Virus record (IMG/VR): IMGVR_UViG_3300020471_000006
Span: 96,001-160,000 of that record
DNA length: 64,000 nucleotides
Reading direction: 5' to 3' (one strand)
Origin: a virus
Lineage: Duplodnaviria > Caudoviricetes
A program made the translations under genes and the position numbers. Positions 29,370 through 40,200 of this stretch are shown in pieces; the stretch's first letter is position 1; each line of letters opens with the position of its first letter. The notes below the pieces were generated by a model, which worked only from the letters and a program-made list of their open reading frames with translations, ran no database searches and was not told the origin of the DNA.

Positions 29370-29389
29370 ATAATTGGTGGTTATAAATA
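29365..29389 (+). promoter_or_regulatory. Two consensus T4 late promoters
   Basis: TATAAATA at 29365-29372 and 29382-29389. Confidence 0.85.
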
Positions 29390-29426: not shown

Positions 29427-30815
29427 ATGGCACTCTTAGTCACCGACAACGGCGAAATTGATTCTCTAAGGAATCTGCTGAATTATTCACAGAATATCCC
29501 TAGGAACCTTATTCTTAAGTTGTTCACTACAGATACATATCCTGCTGAGAGTGATACTCCCTCTCAAACAAGATATTTCGAACCATATACCGATAACAAT
29601 ACTAACGGTTACGGTTCAGGACCTACTACAGGTTATCCTGGAATCATTAACAATAGAACTGATCAGGATTATGCACAGCAATATGGTATCTTACTGAACG
29701 GTAACCGTTGGGGAATCGAGACTGAACCAACTGCTGTTACAACAACTAATGGTGATGGTACATCTGGAACATACCTAGTTACGGTTGCTTCTAACACAGG
29801 TATTAAAAAGGGTGACTATGTTACTGGTGGATCTGTCGGCACTGGTGCATATGTTGTTGACATTGATGGTACTACACTTAACCTAAGTGTTAAGAACACT
29901 GGTAACTTCACTGCACAACCATTGAGTTTTGGTAGAGGTAGAACAACTGCTTCTTATCCTGAGCAAACATTCACCTTTGATGGTCCTGCTGGTAACGTAT
30001 ACGGTTATTTCCTCTCACGTGCTAACAACATGCCTACAACCATTCATGGTGTGGCTGATGCTGGTACTGCTGCTGCTGGAACACAGATTTCTAAGTCTGG
30101 TGTAAGGGGAACTATCGGTAACAACTATATTACTCTTGCTGCTGTTGCTGCAACTACTGCTTCTACTGGTACTGCTGGTGAGTTCGAAGTTGTTGTTACA
30201 TCTACAACTGGAATTGCTGTTAATCAGCGTGTTACAGGAACTAACGTTGCTCAGGGAGCACGTGTTACTGGAATCGTTGGTACTACAGTTTATCTAAGTA
30301 AGGCAAACGGTGGTGCTGTTAGTGGCGACTTGGTATTCCAAGCAAACGTTGCTGAGGATCTTGCTCTTGGAATGAGAGTTTCTCAGACAACTACACCTAA
30401 CGGTATCGATGCTGCTACAGTTATTACTGGTATCGACTACGAAACAGACGATGCAGATGGAACAGTAACTGTATTCCTCAATAACGTTCTTATTGAGAAC
30501 ATTCAGACTTCTAACGGTAATGACGTTGTTAAGTTTGACTTCAGTAAAGTAACTGCTACAGGTCATGGTCTAGAACCAGGCGACGCAGTTTATATCGATC
30601 AGGGAACAGGTAACACCACAACTACTGCTGGTACTTACATTGTATTTGAGACACCTGATGCAAACACCTTCACGACTACTAAAGCACTTGATGGTACAGG
30701 TTCTGTGACACTCTATGATGCGATATTCTTCGCTGAAAGGTTCACAAATGGTCCTTACGCTATTCAAAACGCTGGTGACCAGATCAAAGTAACTCTGAAC
30801 GTCAGCCTAGACTGA
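29427..30815 (+). CDS. Virion structural protein (probably highly expressed)
   Basis: Own double late promoter, SD GAGG and downstream terminator; Thr/Gly-rich; YPEQTFTF...VYGYF and AERFTNGPYAIQNAGDQIKVT motifs. Confidence 0.8.
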   Translation: MALLVTDNGEIDSLRNLLNYSQNIPRNLILKLFTTDTYPAESDTPSQTRYFEPYTDNNTNGYGSGPTTGYPGIINNRTDQDYAQQYGILLNGNRWGIETEPTAVTTTNGDGTSGTYLVTVASNTGIKKGDYVTGGSVGTGAYVVDIDGTTLNLSVKNTGNFTAQPLSFGRGRTTASYPEQTFTFDGPAGNVYGYFLSRANNMPTTIHGVADAGTAAAGTQISKSGVRGTIGNNYITLAAVAATTASTGTAGEFEVVVTSTTGIAVNQRVTGTNVAQGARVTGIVGTTVYLSKANGGAVSGDLVFQANVAEDLALGMRVSQTTTPNGIDAATVITGIDYETDDADGTVTVFLNNVLIENIQTSNGNDVVKFDFSKVTATGHGLEPGDAVYIDQGTGNTTTTAGTYIVFETPDANTFTTTKALDGTGSVTLYDAIFFAERFTNGPYAIQNAGDQIKVTLNVSLD

Positions 30816-30845
30816 TTAATTCAATTGATTTCATTATTATGTGTG

Positions 30846-30873
30846 AGGGGATTCAGTACTGGATCCCCTTTTT
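30846..30873 (+). terminator. Rho-independent terminator
   Basis: AGGGGATTCA-gtac-TGGATCCCCT stem (one G-U pair) followed by a T run. Confidence 0.8.
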
Positions 30874-30890
30874 ATTTTAGTGGAGGGTAA

Positions 30891-33800
30891 ATGGCAACGC
30901 ACATCTATACAACTGGTATAGACGGACCTTATGGGTCTAGTTTTGCGTTGCGTATTTTTAGTGGCGAGAGACATTCATATTCATGGAATCCTTCATGTGT
31001 TGAGGAGTTTATACAACTCGACTACGGTTTAAATTCATTAGCATTAACACCCACAACCATCATAGATGGTGGATCTATCAACGACGTAGAAGCTGTCGAA
31101 GTAGATGATTGGGGTAGAATAATTTACACAGATACTGTCCGACCTTACGGTTTTGTTAGACCGAAGACTGCTACAACGTGGACAGTTCTACATGCATGGG
31201 TTGGTACAGGTACTGTCTTTGAGATGGTCGGTAGTTACTATCGTCTGTCTGCTCCTTGGATCGTTCAAGGTACGGTACGAGTATCAGGTAGTGCGGTTAC
31301 ACACTGGGTTCCAGACCTCGAATTCGACGGGCTGTTTGGGATCCAGTCCCTCACAACGGAAGCTTTCTCTAAGAAAGAATCTGGTGAAGGTGAACTGTAC
31401 AAGCTTGGTGCTGGTGCAGTTACTAGAAGTATTTCAATTGAGTCCAAAGGACTATTCAGATTCAAGAGTAACGCAGGGGTTTCCTTTAGACCTAACTGGG
31501 TGGGATCAGGTACAGCCCAGATTTCTGGAGAAGTCTCAGGTATTAAGCGTACATTTGGATTTGAGGGTTCAGGTACTCTACCTAATATTAGTAGCGAAGA
31601 TAACAGAAGAACATACGCATATAATAATTCTGCTGTTGTTCCATTCGAATATGAGGACTACGGAACGATTCCGATACAGTCCTATCAAATCATTACTACA
31701 AACCAAGTACTGTCAGGTGTAAGTACTGGTTCTGTAGTACAAATTAATCCTACAATAACTGCAACTGTAGATCCTAGTGGATATCAGATTGCACCTCATT
31801 CGGGTACGTTTACAAACTCGATTGAACATGCTCCAGTGTCTGTTGGTAAGACAACCAACCTTGACTGGGGTCTTCTTAGTATCACTGGTACTCTATATCC
31901 ATACGGTCTCGGTCAAGTCAAGGGTACTGCTAAAGTTAACTTTGTACCTAATTGGATTGGTACTGGTGAAGTTAAAGTATTTGGTAAAGGTAGAGGAAGA
32001 ACCAAACCGAAATGGATTGGATTCGTCAGGAATCTTGTTACTGGTACTCTTGCAGAGAGAACTACTGTCACTGAGATTGGATCTGGTGTACTATTCAACT
32101 TCTCTAGAGCAGACGAGGCATTTACCTTTACCTATGAAGGTTCTGGTAATCTATACAAAATTGGTGGTGGTGAAGAAAGTGTCACTACAGACTACGTTGG
32201 TACTGGTACTCTCGCTCAACTTCAATCTAACGTTAAGGTCAACTTCGTACCTAACTGGAGAGGTTCTGGTGTTGTTGATGTCACAGGTGAAGTCTCCAAC
32301 GTTAAGAGATCATTTGGTGAGCAACCATTTGGTGTCATTCCAGTCTTCACTGGAGATGCATATGCTGAGAGAGTTACTTGGGATTACAACGATAGTTCTA
32401 TCTTACCATTTGGTTATGAAGACTTCGGTCCATTACCAGGAACTGCTACTGTCGAGGAGATCAATACAAATACGATCCTCTCAGGTACATCTACAGGATC
32501 TGTTGTAAGAATCAATGTTGGTGTTGTTGCGGTAGTAGATCCAGACTACACAATCTCACTTGTATCTAACTTCACACCAGGTGCAACCTTTGATTATGGT
32601 CTGGTTTCTGAAGGGTTCAATGGACCTATTGATTGGGGATATATTGCCCAGACAATCTGGAATTATCCTTTTGGTGGTTTCCAATATACCAGCAATACAC
32701 ATACATCACAAACCAAAGGATTTGTTGCAGAGAAGACATTCGATGCATCGATCAAGATTCGTTCTGCAACGTGGGTACGTATTAACCCACAGTGGGAAGG
32801 ATTTATTCCGATTGATGTTACTGGTGCTGCTACTTACAGTGTTACTAGACCATACACAGGTGAAGGTCGTGCATTCAGTATTGTATACGCTGAAGCTTCA
32901 CGTGTATTTGATTACGTTGGTGAAGGTCAGATCTACAAGATTGGTGGTGCAGTTGAATCTGTATCCTTCAACCCAGATGAGAAACAGGCTCTATTCCCAA
33001 TCAGGGGTGTTGCTGACGTTAGATTCGCACCTAACTGGAATGCCTTTGGTACTCTATGGGCATCTTATGGAACAGCAGAACCTGTACTTAGATCCTTTGC
33101 TTATGAAGGCACAGGTGTTCTACCTACTCTTGTTGGTACAGAGAATAGAAGAACTTACTCTTACAATGATTCTTCTGAGAATCTATATCAGTACAGAGAT
33201 TATGCAAGTCTACCTGGTGTCGGTACTATCACCGAGATCACACCAAGTCAGAGTATCTCTGGTACATCACCAACTTCTATTATCAGAATTGGTCTCAATG
33301 GTGTTGTTGCAAACATACCTCTTGGTCAGACATACGAGATCGATCCTTGGCTCACCACTGGAGCAACAACAGTCCACGACTGTGGATTTATCACCGATCC
33401 TGGTGCAACGGTAAGAGAGGATTATGGATTCACATCCACAATCAGTTCTATCAGAACAAAAGTTTCCGAATACCCATTTGGAAAACTTGTCAGTTTTGTT
33501 TCTCTATCAGCACCTTCACAGACCAAGATCTTCATATCGGATCCGATTCCTTGGGAACATGCGATCAAGATTCGTTCCGATGCAGCAGTTCGTGTACCAC
33601 CTCAGTGGGTTACCAACGATCCAACACTTTGGACTTGGAGTGGTGCAGCAGAATGTACAGTATCTGTTCCTCCAACAACACCACCATTATTCAAGTTTGC
33701 TGGTGGTTACACAGATCTCAAGTTCATCACAGCAGAAGAAGGTTCTGCTCATATGGAACTATCTGGTACTTGTCAAGAGGCAGTTGTATCAGACAACTAC

Positions 33801-36344
33801 AGATTCGTTACTATCGACGTTTCTGGAAACGCAGCAGAGAACTTCAGTCTCCACTTCCATGGATCTGGAAATCTATATTCTATTGGTCGCAGTGCAGAAG
33901 CGATTACAATCGACATACCTGCATTCCAAGCAGATCTTACATTTGGTGGATTCGGAAGTCAGAGATTTACTGTTGCAGAACAGTTTACTGTCGATATCGA
34001 TCTTTCTGGTACTGCAATCGAAAGACAGACAGACGATTGGGTTGGTCAATCTCATACAGAGATATTCAACGTTTCTGTTGTACCACTTATTACGAAGCAT
34101 TGGACTGGCGAAGGTCGGATCTTCAACTTCAGTGGTGCAGTCGAAGCGGTTACATTCAACCCACTCGAACTTGGAGCACTATTCGACTTTACAGGTCGTC
34201 TCGACGAGAGTCGTGCAATTGCTATTGCTGGTCTGGTTCACACAGAAGTACGTGGAACAGCAAGTCCTGCAAAACTTACATTCGCAGAGCAACTATTTGG
34301 TCGTACAGAAGTATACGGTCAAGCAGATCTTCTCAGGACACACGCTTACACAGGCGATGGTCAGGTCTTCTCTGTTGGTGGTGCAGCAGAATCTATTACT
34401 CTCAAACTTCCAGAGTTTACAGCAGACGCAGTTCTCAAGGGTGCTGTCAAACAGAGCTTCACCTTTGGTGGTATTATTGGATCTGGTGTCTTCACAGTCT
34501 TTGGAGAGATTGCAGATCCACTACTTACATTCGCAGAACAACCACTCGGAGACATCTACGTCAGTGGTATTGCAGATGTTGTCAACGTCGATATTCACTT
34601 TGGTGTTGGTGGACTGTTCTCTATTGGTGCAGCAGACGAAGCAATCACAGTCAAGATACCTGCATTCACAGCAGATATCCAGTTTGGTACAGAGTTTGCA
34701 GATATTCGTGCCACATACAGAGAGATTGGTCAAGCAGAAATTCTCTTCAGTGGAGAAGTTTCAGAACCAATCCTCACATTTGCAGAGCAACCAAGAATCG
34801 AAGTCGATATATTTGGTGCTTCTACATCTTCCAGATCCCACGTATGGGTTGGCGAAGGTCGTATATTTGCTATCAGTGGTGCAGCAGAGAGTGTCACATT
34901 TGTCTTGCCAGAATTCCAGGCAGACATGGTGTTCAAAGGGTTTGGTTCATTCAAACAAACCTTCAGCGAAAGATTCACAATCGAATCCAAACTGTCTGGT
35001 GCAGCAAGTATCAAGTACATTCCAAACTGGATTGGTTCTGGTACTGCAACAGTCGATGTTACATCTACATTCTCTCGTACCAAAATCTTTATTGGAGAAG
35101 GACGCATCTTCAATATCAGTGGTGCATCCGAAAGTGTTACCTTCAATCCAGAAGAGAGACAGTTACTATTCTCTATTGGTGGCACAAGGGCAACAGAAAA
35201 TGTTGTATGGAGTCCAGACGAAGTACCAGTATTCGTCGATATTACTGGAAAGGCATTCGAGAGATTCACACCAAACAATATTGGTTCTGGTACTATCTAC
35301 GTCGATGTCGATACATCCGAACGTATTACAAAGGACTTTGTTGGAGAAGGACGTATCTTCAACATCAGTGGTGCTTCAGAGAGTTTCACTGTCAACCCAG
35401 ACGAGACTACTGCACTATTCTCTATTGGTGGTGTTTCAAGTCAGGTTGTTGTCAGAAGAGAGATTGTATTTGGTACACTCTTTGCATTCTCTGGTGCTTC
35501 AGAAAGTGTTGGAGTCGCACCACTTGCAGACGGTCTCTTTACATTCAAGGGTCGTGCAGAGGAAGCAACAACATACGCAGAAGTTGGATTCGGAGATCTA
35601 TTCAACTTTGTTAGCAGTATTGAGCGTCGCACATTTGACTGGACTTCTCAAATCGATCTTGGTGTTTCTGGTATTGCAGACGAGAAACATACAGAAGCAT
35701 ACTCAGGATTTGGAAATCTATACAACTTCTCTGGTGCAGCAGAGACAATTACATTCTCTCCAGAACTTTATGGAGTTGTACATGTATTTGGTGTTGCCGA
35801 TACTCCAAGAACAAGAGTTACAGTTGGAACTGGATCATTCTTCACATGGAACAATGCATCCGAATCCAGAACAATTGCAGTCGAGAATGTTGCAATCTTC
35901 GACTTCTTGGGTGTTGCAAGACAGGCAGTTGTCAGAAACATTGTTACAGATGTCACTGTCGAGGTCAGAGGATCAGGTGCAGAATCCTTTACAAGGAAAG
36001 GATATGTTGGAGAAGGTTCCGCACAATTCTCTGGAGAATCTACTTCCAGTATCACAAGGATCGAAGAGGGTACAGGAAGAATCGATGTCTTCGAAGAGGA
36101 CAATATTCCTCTTATCGTCAAGACATTTACTGGTTCAGGTCGCATACCTTCTGTCTCAAATGCAGGAGTCCTCCGTACCTTCAGTTACGATGGACATTGC
36201 CCAATTGAGATTGATATTACAACCAAGGTTATTGCACCTTATCAGAGATTTGTATCTGAAGGTGGAGTTATTCTACATGTTGGTGATGCTGAGACAAGAC
36301 GCATACAAGTTGCACCACCAAGATCTTATGGATGGATCATATAA
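30891..36344 (+). CDS. Large repeat-rich virion structural protein (1817 aa)
   Basis: SD GGAGG; many W.G.G...V.G and GEGRIFNISGASES.TFNP / FAEQP repeats; late gene context. Confidence 0.85.
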   Translation: MATHIYTTGIDGPYGSSFALRIFSGERHSYSWNPSCVEEFIQLDYGLNSLALTPTTIIDGGSINDVEAVEVDDWGRIIYTDTVRPYGFVRPKTATTWTVLHAWVGTGTVFEMVGSYYRLSAPWIVQGTVRVSGSAVTHWVPDLEFDGLFGIQSLTTEAFSKKESGEGELYKLGAGAVTRSISIESKGLFRFKSNAGVSFRPNWVGSGTAQISGEVSGIKRTFGFEGSGTLPNISSEDNRRTYAYNNSAVVPFEYEDYGTIPIQSYQIITTNQVLSGVSTGSVVQINPTITATVDPSGYQIAPHSGTFTNSIEHAPVSVGKTTNLDWGLLSITGTLYPYGLGQVKGTAKVNFVPNWIGTGEVKVFGKGRGRTKPKWIGFVRNLVTGTLAERTTVTEIGSGVLFNFSRADEAFTFTYEGSGNLYKIGGGEESVTTDYVGTGTLAQLQSNVKVNFVPNWRGSGVVDVTGEVSNVKRSFGEQPFGVIPVFTGDAYAERVTWDYNDSSILPFGYEDFGPLPGTATVEEINTNTILSGTSTGSVVRINVGVVAVVDPDYTISLVSNFTPGATFDYGLVSEGFNGPIDWGYIAQTIWNYPFGGFQYTSNTHTSQTKGFVAEKTFDASIKIRSATWVRINPQWEGFIPIDVTGAATYSVTRPYTGEGRAFSIVYAEASRVFDYVGEGQIYKIGGAVESVSFNPDEKQALFPIRGVADVRFAPNWNAFGTLWASYGTAEPVLRSFAYEGTGVLPTLVGTENRRTYSYNDSSENLYQYRDYASLPGVGTITEITPSQSISGTSPTSIIRIGLNGVVANIPLGQTYEIDPWLTTGATTVHDCGFITDPGATVREDYGFTSTISSIRTKVSEYPFGKLVSFVSLSAPSQTKIFISDPIPWEHAIKIRSDAAVRVPPQWVTNDPTLWTWSGAAECTVSVPPTTPPLFKFAGGYTDLKFITAEEGSAHMELSGTCQEAVVSDNYRFVTIDVSGNAAENFSLHFHGSGNLYSIGRSAEAITIDIPAFQADLTFGGFGSQRFTVAEQFTVDIDLSGTAIERQTDDWVGQSHTEIFNVSVVPLITKHWTGEGRIFNFSGAVEAVTFNPLELGALFDFTGRLDESRAIAIAGLVHTEVRGTASPAKLTFAEQLFGRTEVYGQADLLRTHAYTGDGQVFSVGGAAESITLKLPEFTADAVLKGAVKQSFTFGGIIGSGVFTVFGEIADPLLTFAEQPLGDIYVSGIADVVNVDIHFGVGGLFSIGAADEAITVKIPAFTADIQFGTEFADIRATYREIGQAEILFSGEVSEPILTFAEQPRIEVDIFGASTSSRSHVWVGEGRIFAISGAAESVTFVLPEFQADMVFKGFGSFKQTFSERFTIESKLSGAASIKYIPNWIGSGTATVDVTSTFSRTKIFIGEGRIFNISGASESVTFNPEERQLLFSIGGTRATENVVWSPDEVPVFVDITGKAFERFTPNNIGSGTIYVDVDTSERITKDFVGEGRIFNISGASESFTVNPDETTALFSIGGVSSQVVVRREIVFGTLFAFSGASESVGVAPLADGLFTFKGRAEEATTYAEVGFGDLFNFVSSIERRTFDWTSQIDLGVSGIADEKHTEAYSGFGNLYNFSGAAETITFSPELYGVVHVFGVADTPRTRVTVGTGSFFTWNNASESRTIAVENVAIFDFLGVARQAVVRNIVTDVTVEVRGSGAESFTRKGYVGEGSAQFSGESTSSITRIEEGTGRIDVFEEDNIPLIVKTFTGSGRIPSVSNAGVLRTFSYDGHCPIEIDITTKVIAPYQRFVSEGGVILHVGDAETRRIQVAPPRSYGWII
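33415..35611 (+). other. Region with all three + strand reading frames open (stop-triplet desert)
   Basis: Main frame plus ORFs 33347-35614 (+2) and 33424-36360 (+1) overlap; no TAA/TAG/TGA between 33415 and 35611. Confidence 0.9.
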
Positions 36345-36345
36345 G

Positions 36346-36363
36346 ATAAATATAACATAAATA
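36346..36363 (+). promoter_or_regulatory. Two late promoter variants (ATAAATA x2)
   Basis: ATAAATA at 36346-36352 and 36357-36363, upstream of ATG 36387. Confidence 0.65.
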
Positions 36364-36386
36364 TACTTGGTATCGAATAATCACTG

Positions 36387-36848
36387 ATGACAACTCAGGT
36401 TCAATTCCGAAGAGGTACTACAGCTGAGCATGCTCTCTTCACTGGGGCGCAGGGTGAACTGACGATTGATACTGACAAGAACATGGCCGTCATTCATGAC
36501 GGAACCACTACTGGTGGATTTGACGTTTTTAGGGCTAGATGGGAATATATCAATTCAAATCAAACTCTTGGAACAAGCCTTCGTTATTTGGTGGACTCTT
36601 CAAATGGTCCAATATCGTTAACCCTTCCGCTTTACAATAATCAATTAGTTCCCAAATCTGGGGATGTAATAGAGTTTATTGACGTAAAGTTTAGTTGGGA
36701 TATAAATAATGTTACTCTGACGGACCCTATCGGACGACAATTCCAGAATACATTTGGAGTTATATCATCACCTCTGGTGTTTGATGTCAAAGGAGCAAGT
36801 GTCCAACTTATTTGGGAAGGAGTTTACTGGAGGGTAATAGTCCAATGA
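36387..36848 (+). CDS. Virion/tail protein with Mtd-N-like N-terminus and gp9/10-like beta domain
   Basis: QVQFRRGTTAEH..FTGAQGELTIDTDK...IHDG.T.GG, then YLVDSSNGPISLTLP...GDVIEFID. Confidence 0.75.
   Translation: MTTQVQFRRGTTAEHALFTGAQGELTIDTDKNMAVIHDGTTTGGFDVFRARWEYINSNQTLGTSLRYLVDSSNGPISLTLPLYNNQLVPKSGDVIEFIDVKFSWDINNVTLTDPIGRQFQNTFGVISSPLVFDVKGASVQLIWEGVYWRVIVQ
36701..36708 (+). promoter_or_regulatory. Gene-internal consensus late promoter
   Basis: TATAAATA inside 36387-36848, about 140 nt upstream of the next gene. Confidence 0.5.
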
Positions 36849-37252
36849 CGATGTACATCAGCGATAGTTTTAGAGGCGGTGGCACTAGCTCAGGCGGTGG
36901 CGGCGGTACAGGCTTTGCTAGTAACAACTACGATCTTGGTAACGATTTTACTATCCACGCCTTAAGCAGAGATGCAGATGGCATGCTCAACTATACCAAA
37001 ATAAGAAGTATTGATGATGATGTAGTAACTTTCCATCGTAAAGATGGAACTCCATACCTAGATATTGCAACTGGTATGACTGATTATGTAGAAGAGACTA
37101 CAGAAGAAAAGTCATATACTAATCATCCACAAGATGAATATCAGCAGTATAGATTTGATAGTAGAAAAGTAACCTACTTTATAGATGATGACGGATATTT
37201 CAATGTTCGTTTTAATGAATCTTACGATTATACAACCGAGGGACCTAAGTAA
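36845..37252 (+). CDS. Hypothetical virion-region protein with Gly linker
   Basis: ATGA overlap gives start 36845 (MTMYISDSFRGGGTSSGGGGG...) rather than 36812. Confidence 0.75.
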   Translation: MTMYISDSFRGGGTSSGGGGGTGFASNNYDLGNDFTIHALSRDADGMLNYTKIRSIDDDVVTFHRKDGTPYLDIATGMTDYVEETTEEKSYTNHPQDEYQQYRFDSRKVTYFIDDDGYFNVRFNESYDYTTEGPK

Positions 37253-37263
37253 AGGAAAAACAA

Positions 37264-40200
37264 ATGGCAGATTTTAGACTTGGCAGACTAAAATTTAACT
37301 GGAGAGGTGACTGGGCGGCTGGAACCGCTTATGTCATTGATGACATTGTTAAATTTGGTGCTAACACTTACGTAGCTATCGCTAACCACACATCGGTTTC
37401 GAGTGCTGCACAATGGTATGCAACTGATGCAGGTAGTTGGCAACTTCATACAGAGGGTATCTACAATACAGGTGATTGGGCTGCAGCTACTTTCTATAAG
37501 TTAAACGATATCGCAAAATACGGTAACGTACTTTATAGAACTACTACACCACACTTATCTACTAGTACTTTTGACAGTGCTAAGTTTGCTGCCTACTTAG
37601 ACGGTCTTAAGTTCGAAGATACTTGGGATTCAGCAACTGAATATCAAAAAGGTGATATCGTAACATATGGTGGTTATTCATATGTTGCTTTAACAACTAG
37701 TATTGCTATTCAACCAAATAACGGTATTGGTAACCAGTGGGATATCCTAACAACTGGTTTCAAAGTTGTTGGTAACTGGGATTCTACTACAACATACAAA
37801 CCAGGCGACGTTGTACTCTTAGGTGGTAACTCATACGTTTCTAAGACAACAAACATTAATAAGTCTCCTGATACAAACACTTCTGATTGGGACTTCGTTG
37901 TTGGTGGATTTACATGGAAGGGAACTTGGGATGTAGGTACTGTCTACTATCCAGGTGATGCTGTTAACAGAAATAGTAACTCCTATATTTGTGTAGCTCA
38001 GTCAACAGGTAATGCACCTGAAACAGATACTCTTGGTACATATTGGAATTCACTTGCTGAAGGAGCGTCTGCCAACGTTCTAACAACATCTGGTGATATT
38101 CTTTATCAAGCTGGAGCTGGTCCTGCTAGATTAGCAATTGGAACTGAGAATAAAGTTCTTACTGTTGATGCTTCTGGTTATCCATCATGGAAAGAGAGTC
38201 ACGTTACACACAAAGTTTACTACGTTACTCCAGAAGGTAAAGATACCAATCCAGGTAACAGTATTACAACAGCATGGAGAACAGTTCGTCACGCTGTAGA
38301 TAATGTAACTGGTCCTGCAACAATTTACGTTAAAGCAGGTACATATAACGAAATCCTTCCAATGAGGGTTCCTGAAGGTGTAGGTATCGTTGGTGATAAC
38401 CTAAGAACCTCAAGGATTCAAGCAAGAGCTGGTGAACCTTCAAGTGTTGTTAAACTTTCACTTGCACAAGTACCTGATGCTCAGTATAGAGTTCTTGGTT
38501 CTACTATCACATCTGGTGATGGAGCAAAGACTGGTGAAGTTATTGATGTTAGAGGAGGAGGTGGAGAGATCTATGTCCAAACTGATGGATTTGAAAATAA
38601 CAAAACTGCTGACGCATACAACCTATTAACATCTAACACACAGTTCCTTGTTAAGGAAACTCTTGCACAAGCTGCTAACGGTGGTGTTGCTATTACTAGC
38701 CCTCCAGGAGGAGATGCTTCTGTATTCGAAAGTAAACTTGCTGGTTTGGTTCAGGATATCACTGCTAACTTAGGTTATGGTGGTAACGACCGTGTTTATG
38801 ACACAGTTGATGATTGGATTACTACTAACTATTGGAATGGTAACGAAGCAGAAGTTGTTTCTATCTTAGCATACTTGATTCCTCTTGCAAAAGATGTTAT
38901 CAATAACACAACAATTACTGTTATTGGTACTCATGGATTAGGTCAGGTTAAGAACGATACTATTACAGACATTAGTACTGTAAGTGGAAACGCAACTTGT
39001 GTTGTTCAGGATGCTGCTATTACAACATTAGTTGGAGTTGCAACAACTGGATTGGGTTCAGGACTTGGAAGTGTTACTAGAGATGCTAACCAAAACCTCT
39101 GGACAGTTTCAGACACATATGAAGCAGGTGCTACAGATATCGGTATTACTAGTGTAACACCTATCAACAACGAAAACTTAACTATGTGGATGCTAGGAAG
39201 CACCACTATGCTTAAGGACATGGTTATGGACGGAATGGTTGGATTCGTTCCTTCAAATTCTGATCCTAAAGATCTTAACACTGCTACAATCCAAGGTGTT
39301 TATGTACGTCTAGATCCTAACTCACCAATTAAGAGATCACCTTATGTCTCTAACTGTTCTTGCTTCGGTGCAACAGGTATTGGTGCTGTTATTGACGGTG
39401 ATGTTCACGCTAAGTGGGATAATACTGCAAACTTTACACCAACTGATGCTACATACAATCCTTCTACTGGAGATTTAGATCTTGAACTTGGTGCTGGTCA
39501 TGGATTGACTTCTGGATCAAGTATTACATTAGCACAAGCATCTATTACATTTACTTGTACTAAGAACGGTAATGCATCTAACCATGCATATCCTCGTGTT
39601 ACTGACCCTGCGTTTGGTAAGGAACTTGTAATTACAAGTCATAGTGATACAAACATTGTAGTTAATGTTGGTGTTGCTGCTCCTGCTGATCAGTATGGAC
39701 ATACATTTGTAAGTGCTGCTACTAACGCTGTTGTATTTGATAACAGATCAAACAAAACAATGGTGTTTGACTCTTGGACACAAATCCACGAAGATGGTGG
39801 AGTTGGTTTCTGGTGTACAAACAAGGCTGGTGCTGAGATTGTATCTTGCTTTACTTACTACTGTCACATCTCATACTCTTCTACTAGAGGTGGAAGAATC
39901 AGATCTCTTGCTGGTAACTCATCATGGGGAACATACGGTATTGTATCTTCTGGATTCGATACTAATGAAACAACTCTTGATGGTACTATCGATGGTCTAT
40001 CTCTTGAATATGATGAAGCAACAATCGTTGCTGGAGCACAGGATTCAATTTGGTTGAATGAAGAAAGAGTTGTTGGATTAACATCTGGTGCTGTTGGAGA
40101 AATTATCTCTGTACAGGCTGGTGTATCTAAGATACTCTTCAGACCATTTAAAGGAAACTTTGTACAAGGTGAAACTATAGATGGTCAAACTTCTGGAGTA

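Follow-up and report, generated by a model that had tools for sequence, protein, structure and literature searches.

A stop-free zone in a giant tail-region gene

Purifying selection removes the triplets TAA, TAG, and TGA from all three sense frames in the 3′ part of a giant, uncharacterised gene (positions 30891–36344) that lies in a 64,000-nucleotide (nt) stretch of viral DNA (Duplodnaviria; Caudoviricetes). The stretch, referred to below as the window, comprises positions 96,001 to 160,000 of the IMG/VR record IMGVR_UViG_3300020471_000006. We call the zone of the plus strand that is free of these triplets the desert, and we name the frames +1 and +2 by their offsets from the main frame of the gene. 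The exclusion of stops is genuine, under strong selection, and conserved. Selection targets the stop triplets themselves and not any products of the +1 and +2 frames, and these frames are therefore not conventional overlapping genes.

A complete listing of plus-strand stop triplets for positions 33300–36420 bears out what an earlier note on this DNA had described from its letters. Between TAA 33412 and TGA 36206, only TAG 35612, TGA 35621, and TGA 35636 occur, all of them in the +2 frame and the sole stops in 33415–36205. They divide the desert into gaps of 2200 nt and then 570 nt that are stop-free in all three sense frames; the desert does resume after the cluster, with 35639–36205 open in every frame. 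The main frame ends with TAA at 36342–36344 and the +1 frame with TAA at 36358–36360, which puts the end of the latter at 36360, 16 nt beyond the main stop, as had been noted. This proximity is unremarkable, as the +1 TAA belongs to an ATAAATA motif in an A+T-rich spacer. The open +1 frame also supports the statement that a shift into it anywhere in the 3′ half of the gene would yield a nearly full-length product.

Plus-strand stops average 60 per kb over the window, and the successive 1-kb bins of 33001–36000 contain 9, 0, and 3. The minus strand inside the desert is normal (47–62 stop triplets per kb). With a G+C content of 0.42–0.46 in the desert region, base composition fails to account for the stop-free gap.

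The desert is owed neither to chance nor to codon usage. Specifically, when codons were permuted among positions of the same amino acid within 33414–36203 (2000 shuffles), 93.1 ± 6.0 off-frame stops were expected and no shuffle gave fewer than 73, compared with the three that are observed (Poisson P-value of ~5e-36); synonymous and codon-order shuffles together place the expectation at 93–99. A depletion of >25-fold is restricted to the three stop triplets. The next most depleted triplet, GCT, is reduced 4-fold, and TGG, TAC, and TAT are used freely. Elsewhere in the 202.5-kb genome, which outside the desert carries ~12,900 stop triplets per strand, the next-longest stop-free gap on either strand measures 161 nt. 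Among 85 open reading frames (ORFs) of at least 200 codons that were tested genome-wide, the giant gene is the sole outlier (z of -9.2 for the +1 frame and -8.8 for the +2 frame, whole gene). The next four ORFs in the ranking are alternative-frame ORFs within the giant gene itself, and all other real genes fall within about ±3.5 (median z of the remaining ORFs, -0.7 for +1 and +0.8 for +2).

The selection can be followed among close relatives, for which we used 13 sequences from IMG/VR with 88–99 per cent nucleotide identity. About 45 stop-creating synonymous variants would be expected among them, and 15 were seen when variants were scored in the consensus background; in 14 of these 15, the stop is neutralised by a change in the adjacent codon. 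At 33452, for example, ATC AGA has become ATT CGT, both changes being synonymous. The sole real new stop (in relative L011, at 33467) is located 53 nt inside the desert border. Third-position changes to T before codons that start with GA, AA, or AG occur in the desert at a rate of 0.059, as against 0.288 in safe contexts. The same comparison in the part of the gene that encodes the N-terminal region (30891–33414) gives 0.419 in risky and 0.379 in safe contexts and hence no suppression.

Conservation across the gene family

Both stop-free gaps are kept in 13 of 13 close relatives, whose lengths differ by at most one codon, and four stops are present in the window and in every one of these relatives (TAA 33412, TGA 35621, TGA 36206, and TGA 36212). 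A profile search supplied a distant set of ~60 further homologues with 26–48 per cent identity. Most of these have deserts of 1–2 kb that are broken by single or few +2 stops, and in most the +1 frame is open for 2.5–3.4 kb. The end of the +1 frame, whose conservation the earlier note had raised, falls past the main stop in the homologues at a distance that varies from 4 to 61 nt. Synechococcus phages S-CAM1 and S-CAM3 are both grown on Synechococcus WH7803. In their syntenic homologues (~30 per cent amino-acid identity), which are flanked there by tail-fibre genes, the gaps measure 1684 and 1473 nt, divided by one +2 TAG (S-CAM1), and 1203 and 1303 nt, divided by six +2 stops and one +1 stop (S-CAM3).

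Over the last 900 codons of 34 lineages, 84 stops were counted in the +1 frame against 660 expected, and 898 in the +2 frame against 2407 expected. The +1 depletion is universal among these lineages; the +2 depletion is graded and nearly absent in a few. Stop exclusion is a trait of the whole gene family and covers the last 2.9–3.2 kb of the gene.

The +2 stop island

The three stops that interrupt the desert belong to what we call an island (Table 1). In the close relatives, its +2 stops stand at 35612, 35615, 35621, 35636, and 35654 in varied combinations, and TGA 35621 alone is found in every sequence, retained even where its codon went from ATT to GTT. Here the usual codon rule is reversed, with TTT before GAC and TTC before CAC. 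The island (~45 nt) is a short, tolerated lapse of constraint around one persistent stop. Each sequence carries one to four stops in ~15 codons, about as many as expected without constraint (in the shuffles, +2 stops arise at roughly 0.1 per codon), and the clustering therefore needs no special explanation. Within the 21 nt of 35609–35630, there are five four-gamete intervals, and these violations are consistent with stops having been gained and lost repeatedly where constraint is relaxed.

In most lineages of the family, the island lies within ~20 codons of one alignment site, after an LTFAEQP motif and ~510 amino acids from the C-terminus. It consists of a single ATT-AGY TAG in S-CAM1-like lineages, of several stops in S-CAM3-like lineages, and is displaced by nine codons in homologue L062. 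The clade of the window is without a stop at this common site, and its own island is found ~270 alignment columns downstream, at a site where the desert of the L032 group ends and where L054 has one stop. The alignments indicate that islands are a family trait with a clade-specific exact position, and that they appear to sit at boundaries between segments of 370–800 codons. Conservation of the stop cluster among homologues, another point of the earlier note, is thus confined to the clade, where the position is kept (TGA 35621 in 13 of 13), and does not extend to the exact position across the family. A monomer AlphaFold model of the C-terminal 976 amino acids, made with a 45-sequence alignment, has a predicted local distance difference test (pLDDT) score of 24, with no usable fold.

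The alternative frames do not behave as genes

The ORFs in the alternative frames are longer than the codons of the main frame predict (3 vs 93 ± 6 stops), and this holds family-wide. Main-frame synonymous divergence (dS) is 0.10–0.24 in the desert and about the same in the N-terminal half; leaving aside the stop-creating class, the desert and the N-terminal part also have equal synonymous rates. In the +1 frame, matched random variants are as conservative as the synonymous variants that were observed (z of -0.2). The +2 frame gives a signal of conservative change with a z of 4.4, which goes down to 3.0 once the next base is controlled; we tentatively attribute the residual to the ban on T before risky codons.

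The possible starts behave likewise. The +1 ATG at 33424 lies behind a GAGAGGA motif and reads ACG in four of the 13 relatives (L004, L007, L008, and L012), and the +1 ATG of S-CAM1 is unusable, with a stop following three codons later. A conserved internal start for the +1 ORF was rejected on both counts. The +2 desert starts 56 codons before its first ATG, GTG, or TTG, and it resumes straight after the island although the next start-type triplet is 69 codons on. Because these stop-free stretches lack start-type triplets, the exclusion does not depend on a conventional start.

Cys, Trp, and Arg abound in the +2 translation, and the translations of the alternative frames resemble frame-shifted junk. 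They have no match in Pfam or PHROGs, and only one weak match (40 per cent identity over 28 per cent of the query) among 5.8 billion proteins. The suggestion that the stop cluster is a deliberate terminator of a +2 gene product is not supported by these results, given the lack of convincing amino-acid constraint, the 56 and 69 codons that are free of starts, and the lack of a family match.

No slippery heptamer of the form X_XXY_YYZ occurs in the zero frame of the 976 desert codons, the single one in the N-terminal part is not conserved, and homopolymer runs show no excess in the desert. Neither suppressor nor unusual tRNAs were found in the genome, which encodes only a tRNA-Thr (Thr-TGT); a permuted transfer-messenger RNA called by ARAGORN at C1:52598–52943 of the genome overlaps this tRNA and is probably a false positive. 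Rfam has no match in 30500–37500, and no sigma-70-type promoters were found at the island. When the alternative frames were compared with the main frames of 70 homologues and with the whole genome, no true cross-frame homology emerged. The sole apparent matches trace to L047, a partial contig for which the wrong frame was chosen, and to the N-terminal frameshift of L053. In the latter sequence, the N-terminal part is in a different frame at L053:2501–2537, upstream of the desert, owing to a frameshift or an assembly error. Within the desert, none of 73 loci has a frameshift.

The gene and its surroundings

The coordinates of the features discussed here are collected in Table 1.

Table 1. Features of the giant gene and its desert, in window coordinates. 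ORF, open reading frame; nt, nucleotides.
Feature	Position	Strand	Remarks
Main ORF	30891..36344	+	1817 amino acids; uncharacterised giant virion/tail-region protein of a T4-like cyanomyovirus; matches phrog_11522
Strong terminator-like hairpin (11 pairs and T run)	30845..30870	+	directly 5′ of the GGAGGG Shine-Dalgarno motif and ATG of the giant gene
Last +1 stop before the desert (TAA)	33412..33414	+	kept in the window and 13/13 close relatives
+1 open frame	33415..36357	+	981 codons
+2 desert segment A	33179..35611	+	811 stop-free codons; first start-type triplet TTG 33347
+2 stop island	35612..35656	+	TAG 35612, TGA 35621, TGA 35636 in the window; main-frame residues 1574–1583 (FVSSIERRTFD)
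+2 desert segment B	35639..36205	+	189 codons; next +2 start-type triplet ATG 35846
Closing +2 cluster, five TGA	36206..36292	+	136 to 52 nt ahead of the main stop; TGA 36206 and 36212 in all relatives
Two ATAAATA late-promoter-like motifs	36346..36363	+	spacer ahead of the next gene (ATG 36387); second motif gives TAA 36358

The giant gene sits in the tail module of a T4-like cyanomyovirus, a virus of marine cyanobacteria, and its downstream neighbours encode a 153-amino-acid Mtd_N tail protein and then a tail fibre of 1364 amino acids. The function of the PHROG family that it matches is unknown, and the main ORF has no relatives in Pfam, NCBIfam, or PDB. From gene context and repeat content, we infer that the product is a fibre-like multimer. 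The protein ends in the motif PPR.YGWII (36316–36341), in which P968 and W974 are invariant and I975 and I976 are conserved at >=90 per cent in a 45-sequence alignment (A3); this end may be an assembly or docking element. The arrangement of signals ahead of the gene suggests that it may be expressed at a low level through read-through of the terminator-like hairpin. The closest ATAAATA motif upstream is at 29383. All 17 ATAAATA motifs in the window are on the plus strand, mostly at gene boundaries, as expected of T4-type late promoters.

Several further peculiarities concern the sequence of the gene itself. Long open blocks of the +1 frame (199, 245, and 291 codons) occur in its N-terminal part as well, where +1 stops are limited to four clusters, at amino acids 10–77, 277–293, 539–549, and 841. 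The last three of these clusters precede by 3–50 residues D[WY]G...YP[YF]G motifs, which recur every ~260–280 amino acids. The giant protein is very poor in Met, with four internal Met in 1817 amino acids (0.2 per cent). Its main frame has just five start-type codons per 900, and the N-terminal part is equally poor. This scarcity may reflect avoidance of internal initiation. Avoidance of main-frame start codons was rejected as the driver of the desert, as the N-terminal part is equally Met-poor yet has no +2 desert. Finally, the gene is an extreme recombination mosaic, with a Hudson-Kaplan minimum number of recombination events (Rm) of 255 among 14 sequences, and patches of 100–300 nt with 0 to 27 per cent divergence stand side by side in it.

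Possible explanations of the stop exclusion

We lean, tentatively and with slightly more doubt than confidence, towards a run-on design that would keep slipped ribosomes from releasing truncated fibre subunits. Ribosomes that slip would enter the +1 or +2 frame from the main frame at arbitrary points, the simplest route into these frames, and selection would keep them running to a few fixed drop-off points, with no termination inside a segment. Such points would be the islands, the closing +2 cluster that starts 136 nt ahead of the main stop, and the spacer that follows the main stop. An early stop after a slip might produce a cleanly truncated subunit, which might still be incorporated into a multimeric fibre and spoil it; running on might instead add a long nonsense tail, with the product then degraded or excluded. 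Each separate stop site would add one danger window, and the cost would grow with the number of sites. Stops beside an existing stop would cost nothing, so that the few stops would be clustered and interchangeable. According to the run-on model, the alternative frames should also lack amino-acid constraint, depletion should vary by degrees from lineage to lineage, and the +2 desert should be restricted to the C-terminal half. Indel mutants are an unlikely route of entry into the alternative frames, since a genome with such an indel would be inviable whether or not it contained hidden stops. It is possible, though we would put it more cautiously still, that the gene represents an undescribed design, in one class of giant phage fibre genes, in which all sense frames are open and off-frame ribosomes are released only at fixed drop-off points. 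Such a design would be a cis-encoded translational quality control opposite in direction to the selection for hidden stops under the ambush hypothesis.

A number of points weigh against the run-on model. The use of the +1 and +2 frames by ribosomes is inferred from sequence alone. Given that neither slippery heptamers nor an excess of homopolymers is found, frameshifting would proceed at ordinary error rates, and the effect of each stop would be tiny; a selective effect of this size is plausible only if phage populations are very large. The advantage of a long over a short nonsense tail is assumed, as is the multimeric fibre, which is posited from gene context and for which the monomer prediction has a pLDDT of 24. 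The conserved C-terminal YGWII might be the assembly end, in which case N-terminal fragments would be harmless. Additionally, the model leaves unexplained why islands persist at the same alignment site in many lineages and how TGA 35621 survived a codon change.

Among the alternatives, overprinting would make the +1 and +2 frames real overlapping genes, with the cluster ending a +2 product of 755–811 codons and a second +2 ORF following it. Such genes would account for ORFs that are far beyond chance length and held open over deep divergence, for stops that cluster as they would between two ORFs, and for the GAGAGGA-spacer-ATG motif at 33424 in the window. They would, however, be expected to leave traces that the data do not contain: main-frame synonymous rates are reduced only in the stop-creating class, +1 changes are unconstrained (z of -0.2), and sequence context explains roughly two thirds of the +2 signal in terms of mean scores. 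Four relatives lack the +1 ATG, in S-CAM1 a stop comes three codons after it, the +2 desert spans 56 and 69 codons without ATG, GTG, or TTG, and the +2 translation is Cys/Trp/Arg-rich, with no Pfam or PHROG match to the alternative frames and a single weak one among 5.8 billion proteins. Depletion is moreover graded over lineages and not all-or-none. We therefore regard overprinting as improbable. Somewhat less unlikely, but still doubtful, is an evolvability device, in which indels or out-of-register recombination would switch the frame of a fast-evolving host-range gene without truncating its product. This concept has been published for PE_PGRS genes (PMC13328622), agrees with the high mosaicism of the giant gene (Rm = 255 among 14 sequences, patches up to 27 per cent diverged), and shares with the run-on model the prediction that the alternative frames are free of amino-acid constraint. 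The expected products of such switches are missing, however: no alternative frame matches a main frame among the 70 homologues or within the genome, the desert is frameshifted in 0 of 73 loci, and the lengths of close relatives differ by no more than one codon. A repeat domain thrown out of frame would almost certainly lose its function, and such second-order selection is weak.

The stops are excluded from one strand only, whatever the frame, and the ATAAATA late-promoter motif, found in the window on the plus strand only, contains TAA. These properties would suit avoidance of the triplets for reasons unrelated to reading frames, such as a target of an RNA or single-strand nuclease or of a binding factor, or a promoter-like motif; alternatively, the desert could be a passive by-product of composition. 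Both ideas fare poorly, and we give them slightly less credence than overprinting. Exactly the three stop triplets are depleted >25-fold while TGG, TAC, and TAT are free, some 12,900 such triplets per strand stand elsewhere in the genome with no other gene affected, and at a G+C content of 43–45 per cent the shuffle expects 93 stops. We know of no factor that is specific for exactly TAA, TAG, and TGA. Least likely of all, and in our judgement hardly tenable, is the proposal of the earlier note that the cluster is a recently recombined patch from which stops have not yet been purged. Recombination has occurred throughout the gene, and 35609–35630 does contain five four-gamete intervals, within the stretch (35600–35640) that the note had singled out for a check of breakpoints, but such signals run along the whole gene and, at a scale of 300 nt, breakpoints are no denser near the island. 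All 13 relatives, down to 88 per cent nucleotide identity, carry TGA 35621, local divergence is ordinary (5–15 mismatches per 120 nt), and islands are a trait of the whole family.

Implications and comparison with known systems

In this gene, selection on hidden stops is directly visible, in the form of compensated double synonymous changes in a setting where the alternative frames are non-coding. If the run-on explanation is true, products of translational frameshift errors would matter enough to shape ~90 codon junctions in one gene, and the old and mostly statistical debate about the costs and benefits of hidden stops would become testable through synonymous edits to a single gene. A full-text literature search found no description of such a stop-free zone in phages, and we compare it here with the systems that are closest to it.

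Viral overlapping genes have reportedly been detected, in work by Schlub et al. from 2018, by comparing ORF length with codon-permutation and synonymous-mutation nulls. Like overprinted viral genes, the alternative ORFs of the giant gene are far longer than permutation nulls and are conserved among relatives. Unlike in overprinted genes, both alternative frames are open together for 2–3 kb, there is no conserved start, amino-acid-level constraint, or drop in synonymous rate, and the stop-free zone reaches beyond any possible ORF start. The case thus carries a caution, as alternative ORFs of 750–980 codons can be non-genes even when they satisfy length-based tests for gene overlap. In the tailed-phage structural genes lambda G/GT and T7 10A/10B, programmed ribosomal frameshifting at one slippery site appends a short extension in one frame. 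The giant gene resembles them in being a structural gene of a tailed phage with a trans-frame ORF that is kept open downstream, and differs in the lack of an X_XXY_YYZ site and in having both frames open for kilobases.

The PE_PGRS genes of Mycobacterium tuberculosis have few out-of-frame stops, for which tolerance of frameshifts has been proposed, although their paucity of hidden stops is, according to the same authors, largely a passive result of high G+C content (PMC13328622). They share with the giant gene a repeat-rich, variable surface protein, few hidden stops, and translation that continues after a frameshift. In the giant gene, by contrast, the G+C content is 43–45 per cent, its own codons predict 93 stops, and compensated double substitutions reveal active selection.

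Under the ambush hypothesis, selection favours out-of-frame stops that end frameshifted translation early, and the published general trend is for hidden stops to be selected for or neutral (PMC2996987; PMC5909447; bioRxiv 10.1101/2025.10.02.679949). The quantity concerned is the same in both cases, namely what becomes of ribosomes that have left the reading frame, but the sign is reversed, as the giant gene loses hidden stops (z of -9.2 and -8.8). Whereas hidden stops are usually viewed as neutral or beneficial, the giant gene family, in A+T-rich phage genomes, shows strong selection in the opposite direction.

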